A DNA stretch of 51,534 nucleotides from sequence record OQ850291. The stretch is one strand, 5' to 3'. Below the pieces are notes generated by a model. It was not told where the DNA came from, searched no databases, and saw only the letters and a list, made by a program, of their open reading frames with translations. This document shows positions 24,831 to 42,688 of this stretch, in pieces. Origin of the DNA: Escherichia phage vB_EcoS_ULIM2. The position numbers were made by a program, and so were the translations under genes. Within the stretch, counting starts at the first letter, position 1. The number at the start of each line of letters is the position of its first letter.

Positions 24831-24864
24831 TTGATAAAAACGCCCGAATGGATTCGGGCATAGT
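24823..24864 (+). promoter_or_regulatory. Box-type promoter
   Basis: TCGCAC-N3-TTGATA (24823-24836), 22 bp, CATAGT (24859-24864) within inverted repeat CGCCCGAATGG/GATTCGGGC; leader CATCGAAAACGAAGAGG. Confidence 0.45.
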
Positions 24865-24893
24865 AACCACATCGAAAACGAAGAGGCTATATC

Positions 24894-24995
24894 ATGAAGC
24901 TAGTTAAGTGCATCCGAAATGACTCCCAAACACTTCCATTCCGCGTAAATCAGATCTATAGTGTTGGTTATGATTTCGGTGGGGGATTATTTTAG
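24894..24995 (+). CDS. Small ORF (33 aa), not in the ORF track
   Basis: ATG 7 nt after GAGG in the conserved leader; followed by a terminator at 25093. Confidence 0.3.
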   Translation: MKLVKCIRNDSQTLPFRVNQIYSVGYDFGGGLF

Positions 24996-25092
24996 ATTTA
25001 CGACGGTCGAGGTTCAGCAATCCAGGCTCCTCTGAACGGTAGCTATCTGGAATTTATTGAGATAGATTAATAATATCATTCATCACCTTACA

Positions 25093-25122
25093 GGCTGGCA
25101 TGATTTACATGCTGGCCTTTTT
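25093..25122 (+). terminator. Rho-independent terminator before the lysis cassette
   Basis: 10-bp stem (GGCTGGCATG/CATGCTGGCC with two G-U pairs) followed by TTTTT. Confidence 0.6.
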
Positions 25123-25188
25123 GCGTTGTATCAAGTAAATTTGAAGGTTAAAATCGACTCACTTGTTCAAAAAATATATGGTGAGATT

Positions 25189-25404
25189 ATGAAAGAATTT
25201 TTAACAGCAGCTACGTCAAGCACTGGCGGTGCTTCGTTGGTAGGGGCGGCGACAGGGCAACTTTATATTGCTGGCGCTACATTCATTTGCTTTTTGCTTT
25301 TTGGCGCCTGGGGCGCATACTGGAAGTATCGTGATAGTAAGGCAATTCAGGAAGCGTTAAACGATGGCGATCTAAATAAGGCACTTAAGATCAGGGGGAG
25401 ATAA
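25189..25404 (+). CDS. Holin, pinholin-like (71 aa)
   Basis: Small membrane protein with a Gly/Ala-rich first hydrophobic segment and a second TMD ([15 protein letters not shown]); directly upstream of the endolysin; ATG at 25189 with GGTGAG RBS. Confidence 0.55.
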
Positions 25405-25892
25405 TGAGTTTAAAAAATAACGTTATAGGCGCATCAATCGGGGCCGCTTTGACGTTGACACCTACCCTACTTGAACGAATCGAAGGTATAGAATACGAGG
25501 TGTATTACGATATCGCCGGAGTCCCTACCGTATGCAGCGGAATAACCGGGCCTGACGTCATACCTGGTAAGAAATACACTAAGCGAGAATGCGATGCATT
25601 GTTGATAAAACATATCGGCGTCGCTCAGCGATACGTAGACAAAAAGGTGAAGGTTGATATCCCGGTAACTATGCGCGCATCACTGTACAGCTTCACTTTC
25701 AACGTTGGTACTGGCGCGTTCGGATCTTCTACAATGCTTAAGCTAATAAATCAGAGTAAGCACAGGGAAGCGTGCAATCAGTTATGGCGATGGGTATACT
25801 ACTACAATCCAAAAACCAAAAAGCGCGAAGTGTCTAGAGGACTCAAGAACAGACGCGCTGAAGAATACGCGTATTGCGTTAAGGAATTATGA
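25404..25892 (+). CDS. Endolysin, T4-type lysozyme (GH24) with possible N-terminal SAR segment (162 aa)
   Basis: Catalytic E-x8-D-x5-T spacing in [19 protein letters not shown]; N-terminal [17 protein letters not shown] is a weakly hydrophobic Gly/Ala-rich stretch. Confidence 0.75.
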
Positions 25893-26293
25893 TGAAACTT
25901 AAGAAAACGTGCATTGCAATTACGGTTGCTGTTGGTGTGATTTCTCTATCCGGTTGCTCGACGGCATCTGCTCTGAGTGGTTTACTTTCTGACTCCCCGG
26001 ATGTTACGGCGCAGGTTGGCGCTGAGAACACAAAACAACTAGCAGGAGTCACAGCAAAGGCAGATGATAAGCGAGAAGTGAAGGTGAGTGATTCAAATAT
26101 TGGAAAGATTGACTCATCTGTCAAGAAGTCTGTGGAGGTATCAACCATTCAGGCCAATACGGTTAACGCTGAAAGCATCACAGTAACAAAACCGGAAAAC
26201 TGGTACGATGCAATTGTAGGATGGACTCTCGTTTTCATTGGCCTATTGCTGGTTTATTTTTCAATTCGTAAGGACGAAAAAAAGGAGGCGTAA
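25889..26293 (+). CDS. Unimolecular spanin candidate (134 aa)
   Basis: N-terminal lipoprotein signal with lipobox LSGC plus C-terminal TMD ([13 protein letters not shown]); last gene of the lysis cassette. Confidence 0.55.
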
Positions 26294-26307
26294 GCCTCCT
26301 TTCTTTT
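26284..26307. terminator. Bidirectional terminator between the lysis cassette and the minus-strand accessory block
   Basis: GGAGGC-gtaa-GCCTCC with A-run upstream and T-rich run downstream. Confidence 0.6.
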
Positions 26308-26521
26308 ATGCATCAGCCCACATGTAACTTTCGTTAGTGAGTTTTTCGTATTCGCGAACTTCAATTTCACAGGTGTCTCCGTACATCTCAGCTACCTTTT
26401 TCTCATTCGCTACCGCTGATTCCTCGGTCCATCCATCAGCCTTGCTGTAAAGGGTAGGAATCTCACTGCTAGTGCCGTTAGAGTGGTTGTAAACGCGAAC
26501 TACTAAAAATTTGTTAGCCAT
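26306..26521 (-). CDS. Hypothetical protein (71 aa)
   Basis: ATG at 26521 preceded by AAGGAAAG RBS and conserved leader; the track ORF (to 26647) runs through its own promoter. Confidence 0.5.
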   Translation of the reverse strand: MANKFLVVRVYNHSNGTSSEIPTLYSKADGWTEESAVANEKKVAEMYGDTCEIEVREYEKLTNESYMWADA

Positions 26522-26558
26522 GATGCTTTCCTTCATGTCGTTTCGTTTCGATGAAACA

Positions 26559-26601
26559 AATATACCCGATACGAGATCGGGTGTTTTAACAAAAAGTGCT
26601 A
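26559..26601 (-). promoter_or_regulatory. Box-type promoter (leftward)
   Basis: Minus strand TAGCAC-N4-TGTTA (26587-26601), 22 bp, TATATT (26559-26564) inside inverted repeat CCCGAT/ATCGGG. Confidence 0.5.
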
Positions 26602-26710
26602 TTTGTATCTTTTGACATGGAGAAGCAACTCCCCCTCCTGGTCGCAAAGATTATGCTCTCTGTCGCCGTTGGCCCTCATTGAAGTGAGCAGCAGACTCAA
26701 CAATCCTTGT

Positions 26711-41851: not shown

Positions 41852-42079
41852 ATGACCATTTTTTTATTGATTATCGCTGGTATCGTTATTTTTGGTGCTG
41901 GTTTGTTTGCTGGGTTCGCACTTGTTGCGGCAGCGATTGCGATGGACGCGAAGGATAAAACTGGTGTATGGCTGACCTACTCACCTAAGAAGGACCAATG
42001 GGAAATGATTGGCGACCTTGCTCACTGCTACTCTAAAGCCAAGACCCACCCTAAAGGCATTAAACGACGATTATCGTGA
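41852..42079 (+). CDS. Small membrane protein (75 aa)
   Basis: AAGGAG RBS; N-terminal hydrophobic stretch IFLLIIAGIVIFGAGLFAGFALVAAAIA. Confidence 0.5.
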   Translation: MTIFLLIIAGIVIFGAGLFAGFALVAAAIAMDAKDKTGVWLTYSPKKDQWEMIGDLAHCYSKAKTHPKGIKRRLS

Positions 42080-42088
42080 TAAATACTA

Positions 42089-42109
42089 ACCCGCTTCGGC
42101 GGGTTTTTT
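42089..42109 (+). terminator. Rho-independent terminator before the packaging module
   Basis: CCCGC-ttcg-GCGGG followed by 7 T. Confidence 0.6.
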
Positions 42110-42122
42110 TATGTCTGCAATA

Positions 42123-42146
42123 TGGTAAAATAGCACTAAATGTTAA
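42123..42146 (+). promoter_or_regulatory. Late promoter candidate with the palindromic box downstream of the -10
   Basis: TGgTAAAAT at 42123-42131 followed immediately by TAGCAC-N4-TGTTA (42131-42146); TerS ATG at 42164. Confidence 0.4.
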
Positions 42147-42163
42147 ACAAAGAGGATGGATTT

Positions 42164-42688
42164 ATGAGTGAACCTAAGAACGCTCCCGTAGTCCAGGGTG
42201 GTAATTTCAAAGAGCTATACAAGAAAAAATTCGGCACTGTTCTTGCGAAGAACCGGGCAATGACGCCTGAACAATTGTTCGATCTGTCAGTGAAGTACTT
42301 TGAATGGGCCGAGGACAACGCGATCAAGGCGTCAGAATCAGCCAGCTTTCAGGGTGGCGTTTATGAATCGCTTGTTCATAAACCGCGCGTCTTCACCTGG
42401 ACCGGGTATCGACTATTTATCGGTGCAAGCGAGGCCGCAATCATTAAGTGGAAGCGTGAGGAAGAATACAGTGAGGTTATGGAGTTCGTGGAATCCGTAA
42501 TCAACGAGCAAAAATTTCAGCTTGCCGCAAACGGCGTTATTAACGCCTCATTTATCGGCAAAGATCTCGGAATAGACAAGCCAGCTTCAATCAACATCGA
42601 AAACTCAGCAGCTTCAGCGTCGACCACAGTCGCCACTACTGAGGACGCAATGAAAGAGGCTGTAAACAGTATTCTTGAAATGCTTTAA
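42164..42688 (+). CDS. Terminase small subunit candidate (174 aa)
   Basis: Immediately upstream of the large terminase gene; AAGAGGA RBS. Function from position only. Confidence 0.5.
   Translation: MSEPKNAPVVQGGNFKELYKKKFGTVLAKNRAMTPEQLFDLSVKYFEWAEDNAIKASESASFQGGVYESLVHKPRVFTWTGYRLFIGASEAAIIKWKREEEYSEVMEFVESVINEQKFQLAANGVINASFIGKDLGIDKPASINIENSAASASTTVATTEDAMKEAVNSILEML

Follow-up and report, generated by a model that had tools for sequence, protein, structure and literature searches.

A phage T1-type lysis cassette in Escherichia phage vB_EcoS_ULIM2: predicted pinholin, signal-anchor-release endolysin and unimolecular spanin

Three abutting and tightly packed genes occupy positions 25189-26293 of the plus strand in a stretch of 51,534 nucleotides from Escherichia phage vB_EcoS_ULIM2 (record OQ850291; one strand, 5' to 3'), here called the window, and their open reading frames (ORFs) read as a holin, a lysozyme and a spanin. 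The locus raises the question of which type of lysis system these genes form. The original prediction, made from the letters alone, proposed a pinholin, an endolysin of the signal-anchor-release (SAR) type and a unimolecular spanin (u-spanin), as in T1-type phages, with the SAR assignment held as tentative. Our analysis indicates that the three genes very probably serve a T1-like siphophage as its late lysis cassette and have this composition. The u-spanin and SAR parts of the proposal are borne out and match the published T1 module; the pinholin part stays inferential.

Relation to the lysis module of phage T1

The products give strong matches in PHROG (E=1.9e-38 for the holin, E=2.7e-50 for the endolysin and E=5.4e-46 for the Rz-like spanin) and are nearly identical to T1 proteins, and so the three ORFs are genuine genes that did not arise by chance. 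In phage T1, genes 13-12-11 (NC_005833 42878-43982) show the same gene order, the same overlapping junctions and the same terminator after the spanin gene, and their products are 100% (holin, gp13), 98% (endolysin, gp12) and 92% (spanin, gp11) identical to those of the window. At the junctions, the holin stop and the lysozyme start overlap in TAATG, and the spanin start lies inside ATGATGA, where it overlaps the lysozyme stop, the two genes sharing 1 nt. The cassette region is 90-95% identical in nucleotides to T1-like phages, and the surrounding 24 kb are ~90% identical to Tunavirus genomes across ~78-80% of their length; judged by these comparisons, the window is a Tunavirus-like genome, that of a T1-like siphophage (Drexlerviridae). 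T1 differs in two genes upstream of the cassette: it carries the HNH gene gp15, which is absent here, and its gp14 (SH3/DUF7244) is intact, the homolog in the window having an amber stop.

The arrangement extends to other Drexlerviridae. In TLS (gp67-69), Sweeny, Rogue1 and SU57 we find a syntenic holin-lysozyme-u-spanin order followed by a terminator, with the same three protein families at 35-60% identity; TLS differs by a possible dual start in its holin (PMC11447400). In Klebsiella phage Sweeny, curated annotation already labels these genes as coding for a pinholin, a SAR endolysin and a u-spanin because their products resemble T1 gp13, gp12 and gp11. The same designations run through the literature. 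Kongari et al. 2018 (PMC6139136) present gp11 as the prototype u-spanin and place nearly all spanins of the T1gp11 family in pinholin/SAR-endolysin cassettes. In the TLS paper (PMC11447400) the T1 holin has the status of a proposed class II pinholin, and gp12 that of a predicted SAR endolysin; in the KanT1 paper (PMC13164509, 2026) the T1 module comprises a pinholin, a SAR endolysin and a u-spanin plus an upstream standalone SH3/DUF7244 gene. Within this module, the literature describes the u-spanin alone as characterised. The interpretation of the cassette is thus not new: these genes are the T1 lysis cassette as carried by a close relative, and the original prediction re-derived the accepted annotation.

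The endolysin and the spanin

The second product matches Pfam PF00959 (E=2.8e-33), and the features that had been read in it, a weakly hydrophobic N-terminus ahead of an E-x8-D-x5-T triad, are indeed present (V7-L23, followed by E27, D36 and T42). In an alignment of 43 homologs, E27 and T42 show no variation, and D36 almost none. Residues V7-L23 include 9/17 Gly, Ala, Ser or Thr (G/A/S/T), with a Hessa sum of +2.7 and a Kyte-Doolittle (KD) value of 1.68; the uncharged run that follows K4 covers 17-19 residues, at the short and weak end of the SAR range, and the segment runs straight into the catalytic Glu27. SAR segments are recognised by 1-3 basic residues and, after these, a weakly hydrophobic stretch that lacks charges and has many Gly, Ala, Ser and Thr (PMC9239132), and the lysozyme N-terminus has each of these features. 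Among ~115 endolysin homologs, one or two basic residues likewise precede 15-20 uncharged residues ahead of the catalytic Glu. Within the 43-sequence alignment, identity to the window lysozyme is 33% in residues 7-23 versus 62% in the remaining, catalytic part, charged residues account for 0.8% of the segment versus 29% elsewhere, and 47% of the segment is G/A/S/T. The character of the segment is therefore kept in spite of a drifting sequence, which is what one would expect if it is a signal anchor embedded in the membrane.

The closest structures lead to SAR endolysins as well. The best sequence matches in the PDB are 3HDE/3HDF, which represent R21 of phage 21, and 4ZPU, the RrrD protein of prophage DLP12 (E=2.9e-33). 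The 3HDE alignment (E=3.4e-34) starts at lysozyme residue 11, inside the N-terminal segment. Compared with R21 as taken from the genome record of phage 21 (OL657228), the prototype pinholin-SAR endolysin system (S21 / R21 / Rz-Rz1), the window lysozyme is a homolog with 45% identity, the same triad, the same four Cys positions and a charge-free N-terminal segment. An AlphaFold2 (AF2) model of the lysozyme (mean predicted local distance difference test, pLDDT, 89) shows a continuous helix over residues 3-27 that ends at the catalytic Glu27, and Foldseek with this model returned 4ZPU as the best match (TM-score 0.83), together with the full-length R21 structure 3HDE (TM-score 0.86). RrrD differs in its setting: its gene belongs to a prophage, the context is lambdoid and the spanin there has two components.

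Published expression data bear on the location of the enzyme. Under pBAD control, the T1 endolysin alone lyses Escherichia coli within 2 h, with an arabinose minimal inhibitory concentration (MIC) of 0.1%; the cytoplasmic T7 endolysin alone causes no lysis (MIC >3.2%; PMC10954549). The authors of that study do not discuss SAR. Nevertheless, holin-independent lysis by an endolysin 98% identical to the one described here is what one would expect if the endolysin is exported, and it conflicts with a purely cytoplasmic enzyme. It thus speaks against the scenario named at the outset as fatal to the SAR assignment, a cytoplasmic endolysin released only through large holin lesions. A canonical lambda-like system of this kind, in which a soluble lysozyme would reach the wall only via such lesions, agrees with older GenBank annotations that read simply 'holin' and 'endolysin'; given the lysis by T1 endolysin alone, the charge-free N-terminal segment found in all homologs despite sequence drift, and the SAR endolysins as nearest structures, we regard it as extremely improbable. 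Export through a cleavable Sec signal peptide, leaving the enzyme unattached in the periplasm and under some other kind of control, would fit the holin-independent lysis equally, as would any exported lysozyme, and the short hydrophobic core (12-17 residues) followed by a Thr/Pro-rich stretch is loosely like an h- and c-region. However, an Ala-x-Ala-type site is absent, and wherever a cut seems plausible a conserved Pro20/21 would occupy position +1 or its neighbour. The segment ends only 4 residues before the catalytic Glu27, with which it forms one helix in the AF2 model, and the crystal structure of full-length R21 (3HDE), which is the best structural match over the full length, still contains the corresponding N-terminal segment. 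A lysozyme constantly active in the periplasm would moreover kill the host before assembly. This option seems to us highly unlikely, if slightly less so than the lambda-like system.

We conclude that the lysozyme is, in all likelihood, a SAR endolysin. The assignment draws on R21/RrrD homology that reaches the N-terminus, on the conserved character of the segment and on the published holin-independent lysis by T1 endolysin, and what had been offered tentatively is now well supported. Some observations weigh on the other side. The hydrophobic stretch is short (17 residues) and contains Pro; it is 8 residues shorter and less hydrophobic than that of R21 (Hessa sum +2.7 versus +0.1); in Webervirus relatives the uncharged stretch of the endolysin has 15 residues only; and a direct fractionation or depolarisation experiment on T1 gp12 was not found in the searchable literature. 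Membrane tethering followed by release by pinholin or depolarisation is the definitive SAR test (PMC9239132). As a separate observation, the endolysin of Shigella phage vB_SflS-ISF001 has Lys in place of Ile8 in the SAR-like segment (VKGASIG; equivalent to window positions 25425-25427), which shortens the uncharged stretch to 15 residues; it could reflect an error in sequencing, or else a variant that should change how the protein is tethered to the membrane.

The assignment of the third product is the firmest of the three: it is almost certainly a u-spanin. As had been proposed, both a lipoprotein signal and, at the C-terminus, a transmembrane domain (TMD) are found in one chain (LSGC with Ser at +2; TMD at residues 107-125), and no Cys follows the lipobox Cys. 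Lipobox residues L19, G21 and C22 are invariant in 22 spanin homologs, down to 39% identity, over which the TMD sequence drifts, and lipobox and C-terminal TMD occur together in one chain at 77/82 related loci. The TMD is followed by a basic/acidic tail. We found no embedded o-spanin frame in the spanin gene, whose sole internal plus-strand ORF (26088-26186) is without a lipobox; the spanin of phage 21, in contrast, is two-component and embedded. The gene is the last of the cassette and is followed by the terminator. T1 gp11 complements the defect of lambda RzRz1 mutants in disrupting the outer membrane (PMC6139136). AF2 with the 22-sequence alignment gave a pLDDT of 54, with helices only at the signal peptide and the C-terminal TMD and no confident periplasmic fold. 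An alternative ATG at 25889 would yield 134 residues; the start at 25892 is favoured because of the spacing of an AAGGA Shine-Dalgarno sequence and the T1 annotation. A minus-strand ORF inside the gene (25879-26148) was considered and, no search having been made with it, dismissed as spurious.

The divergence from T1 gp11 is concentrated at one end of the spanin. All 11 differences fall within residues 101-128 (26192-26275), that is, the TMD and its edges, and residues 1-100 have none. Tunavirus spanins appear to fall into two TMD 'alleles', a T1/JMPW2 type and a commoner type, the latter found here. These two alleles suggest either a recombination boundary inside or just after the spanin gene or a relaxed constraint on the TMD sequence.

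The class of the holin

The holin belongs to a family whose name, PF27028 Phage_T1_holin, comes from precomputed annotations. The copy of Pfam that we searched has no model for this family and gave just a sub-threshold DUF3262 match, and the NCBIfam search likewise returned sub-threshold matches only. The ATG at 25189 is preceded by GGTGAG; an upstream in-frame TTG at 25141, which gives the 87-residue version annotated in IME18, was rejected as a start since it lacks a Shine-Dalgarno sequence. The T1-type holin family is found in 826 phage records, mostly of phages of Klebsiella, Escherichia and related enterobacteria. Its members are basic at position 2 and have a segment rich in G/A/S/T in which a GG is conserved; a polar turn that reads TGQ, TGE or SDN then leads to a hydrophobic helix, at whose end stands FG-x-(W/F/I)G(A/T)(Y/W)(W/L)(K/R), and the charged C-terminal domain is well conserved.

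The 71-residue length, the Gly/Ala-rich first segment and the second hydrophobic segment noted at the outset are all present. Residues 4-23 are G/A/S/T at 16/20 positions and the segment is very weakly hydrophobic, its best 17-mer having a Hessa-2005 sum of +5.0 and a KD value of 0.95. Residues 25-43 are clearly hydrophobic (Hessa sum +0.2, KD 1.81). The pinholin class is one of small holins with two TMDs and both termini inside (N-in/C-in); judged by hydrophobicity, TMD2 is clear here and segment 1 is too weak to call, the intervening turn consisting just of T-G-Q. This conserved polar turn, T22-G23-Q24, ends the TMD1 segment, and G13, G14, A21, T22 and G23 are conserved in close relatives. 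For comparison, TMD1 of S21, whose sequence we verified in phage 21, is a proven SAR TMD, and by the same Hessa sum it scores +6.2, about as weak as segment 1 here. S21-71 and the holin have equal length (71 residues) and the same layout of a weak, here putative, TMD1 and a strong TMD2. They differ in that sequence similarity is not detectable and in that the holin has no dual-start (antiholin) motif.

On this basis the holin is probably a pinholin forming small holes, a call less firm than those for its two neighbours. The pinholin label is the weakest link in the cassette, as it is drawn from how small the holin is, from its composition and from the SAR endolysin that accompanies it. The pairing itself is constant: in the window and at each of 83 related loci that have a gene downstream, the lysozyme that follows the T1-type holin has a SAR-like N-terminus, and these loci include 34 distinct endolysin N-termini. 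This fits a pinholin, since a pinholin cannot release a soluble enzyme, although the support is weak because of shared ancestry. In effect, all these loci are from Drexlerviridae, and the pairing is confounded by common descent. Other facts also count against a two-pass pinholin. GenBank notes give one TMD for T1 gp13 and also, on the basis of TMHMM, for the Sweeny homolog; Asp occupies positions 6 and 23 in the divergent holins of Rogue1 and TH27, which leaves ~15 uncharged residues for the 'TMD1'; and hhalign of the holin family against S21 detected no similarity (probability 0.2%). Homology to S21 is not, however, required for the functional class of pinholins. Operationally, holes on the nanometre scale are recognised by complementation, in which a pinholin allows lysis with a SAR endolysin and not with a soluble enzyme, as was done for N4 gp63 (bioRxiv 10.1101/2025.11.12.688109); a report of this kind on T1 gp13 was not found. 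Expressed alone, the T1 holin is weakly toxic, without marked lysis (arabinose MIC >3.2%), compared with an MIC of 0.2% for the T7 holin alone (PMC10954549); the lethality of the T1 holin alone is lower than expected for a self-triggering holin.

In an alternative scenario the endolysin is of the SAR type and the holin is not a pinholin, being single-pass (N-out, C-in) or otherwise distinct and making large non-specific lesions; the SAR endolysin would still be activated, since any holin depolarises the membrane. The one-TMD annotations, the low hydrophobicity of segment 1, its interruption by Asp6 and Asp23 in Rogue1 and TH27 and the undetected homology to S21 all favour such a scenario, and SAR endolysins do function together with holins that make large holes: either type of holin lets N4 gp61 complement (bioRxiv 10.1101/2025.11.12.688109), and Lyz of P1 works with LydA (PMC9025707). 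Yet TMD1 of S21 is equally weak by the same measure, the small size and the G/A/S/T-rich first segment fit the pinholin pattern, the T1-type holin never occurs with a soluble endolysin at the 83 loci, and the literature treats the T1 holin as a class II pinholin (PMC11447400, PMC6139136). We therefore consider the scenario rather unlikely. A related and similarly doubtful proposal is that PF27028 holins form a class of small holins of their own, in which one helix alone crosses the membrane, and are not two-pass pinholins in the style of phage 21. In that case the G/A/S/T-rich N-terminal segment could be periplasmic or interfacial from the start, and timing could be set by the strongly conserved cytoplasmic C-terminal domain. 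Were this true, the weak toxicity of the T1 holin alone (PMC10954549) would hint at a trigger partner, for example the SAR endolysin.

Residues 46-71 of the holin, its charged C-terminal domain, hold 8/13 of the invariant positions in an alignment of nine holins across subfamilies; invariant family positions in this domain include D49, S50, A52, A56, G60, D61, A65 and R69, and the overall pattern is K-x-(R/K)-D-S-(K/Q)-A-(I/L)-x-x-A-(L/I)-x-x-G-D-(L/I)-x-x-A-x-x-(I/L)-R. Such conservation hints at a specific regulatory or interaction role.

Under the pinholin/SAR endolysin/u-spanin reading, we put forward that the cassette would act on the three envelope layers in turn. The holin would build up in the inner membrane, its C-terminus facing the cytoplasm, and the N-terminal segment rich in Gly, Ala, Ser and Thr would probably act like the releasable TMD1 of phage 21 S68. 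During late gene expression the lysozyme would be exported by Sec, and the SAR segment (residues 7-23) would hold it inactive at the periplasmic side of the inner membrane. At a set time the holin would trigger and depolarise the membrane, most likely via small 'pinholes'; upon depolarisation the SAR segment would leave the bilayer, and the lysozyme would refold and degrade the peptidoglycan. The spanin would receive its lipid at Cys22 and, with Ser at +2, go to the outer membrane, its C-terminal TMD staying in the inner membrane; once the murein meshwork is gone, it would bring both membranes together and disrupt the outer membrane, a function that published work has shown for T1 gp11.

Table 1. 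Coordinates of the lysis genes, their predicted elements and the flanking features in the window.
Feature	Position	Strand	Remarks
T1 gp14 homolog (standalone SH3-like DUF7244)	24894..25071	+	in-frame TAG at 24993-24995; PF23896
Terminator-like hairpin	25092..25118	+	11-bp stem then T-run; between SH3/DUF7244 gene and holin
Holin, 71 aa (predicted pinholin)	25189..25404	+	PHROG 2877 (E=1.9e-38); 71/71 identical to T1 gp13; PF27028
Putative SAR-like TMD1, holin residues 4-24	25198..25260	+	Gly/Ala/Ser/Thr-rich, very weakly hydrophobic
TMD2, holin residues 25-45	25261..25323	+	strongly hydrophobic; conserved F38-G39-x-W-G42-A-Y-W-K motif
Charged C-terminal (cytoplasmic) domain, holin residues 46-71	25324..25401	+	net charge +3
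GH24 (T4-type) lysozyme, 162 aa, predicted SAR endolysin	25404..25892	+	159/162 identical to T1 gp12
SAR-like segment, endolysin residues 7-23 (V7-L23)	25422..25472	+	charge-free, weakly hydrophobic; K4 before segment
Catalytic motif E27-x8-D36-x5-T42	25482..25529	+	codons read directly at 25482, 25509 and 25527
Unimolecular spanin, 133 aa	25892..26293	+	PHROG 1804 (E=5.4e-46); 122/133 identical to T1 gp11
Lipobox L19-S20-G21-C22 (133-aa numbering)	25946..25957	+	Ser at +2
Spanin C-terminal TMD, residues 107-125	26210..26266	+	Hessa sum -1.6; AF2 helix 107-127
Terminator-like hairpin	26281..26302	+	overlaps spanin stop codon; faces convergent minus-strand gene

Flanking regions and implications

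Two terminator-like hairpins delimit the cassette (table 1). The first is its upstream edge, and the record of Klebsiella phage Sweeny has a terminator annotated at the equivalent position; the second closes it, at the same place as terminators annotated in the T1, Rogue1, Sweeny and SU57 records. A sigma-70 scan from the upstream terminator to the holin found no consensus promoter. By eye, a weak promoter-like TTGTAT-N17-TAAAAT can be seen at 25126-25154, between the upstream hairpin and the holin start, and at the equivalent position SU57 has an annotated BPROM promoter. Directly after the spanin terminator lies a convergent minus-strand ORF (26306-26647), annotated in relatives with 71 or 113 residues, for which a Pfam search gave no match.

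Upstream, the T1 HNH endonuclease gene gp15 lies between a DNA repair exonuclease gene and gp14 (41956-42582 in T1, compared with 24831-24893 in the window); no HNH gene is present at this place in the window, as in IME18, XJA18 and LeonhardEuler. The gp14 homolog itself is interrupted: a single G-to-T change turns the Glu34 codon GAG into TAG, the remaining frame being intact and conserved, and the read-through product matches PF23896 (DUF7244) with E=3.6e-27. Codon 34 is GAG in T1, IME18, XJA18 and LeonhardEuler. The same TAG is found in two separate metagenome contigs, ERZ28618859 (3398/3402 positions identical to the window) and ERZ27280638 (3347/3402), so that a read error is unlikely; five other contigs with an identical spanin have GAG. 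The TAG thus looks like a circulating allele. The SH3/DUF7244 protein has been proposed as an accessory component of the lysis module (PMC13164509, 2026), and many other Drexlerviridae have no SH3 gene, according to the same paper. The amber allele suggests that the proposed accessory lysis protein may be dispensable, and this natural variant bears on the 2026 proposal.

For the T1 family as a whole, the basis of both the pinholin and the SAR label still appears to be inference together with one indirect experiment, which its authors did not interpret in this way. The practical value of the present analysis lies in annotation: the three genes may be named holin (predicted pinholin, Phage_T1_holin family), SAR endolysin (R21-like GH24 muramidase) and u-spanin.

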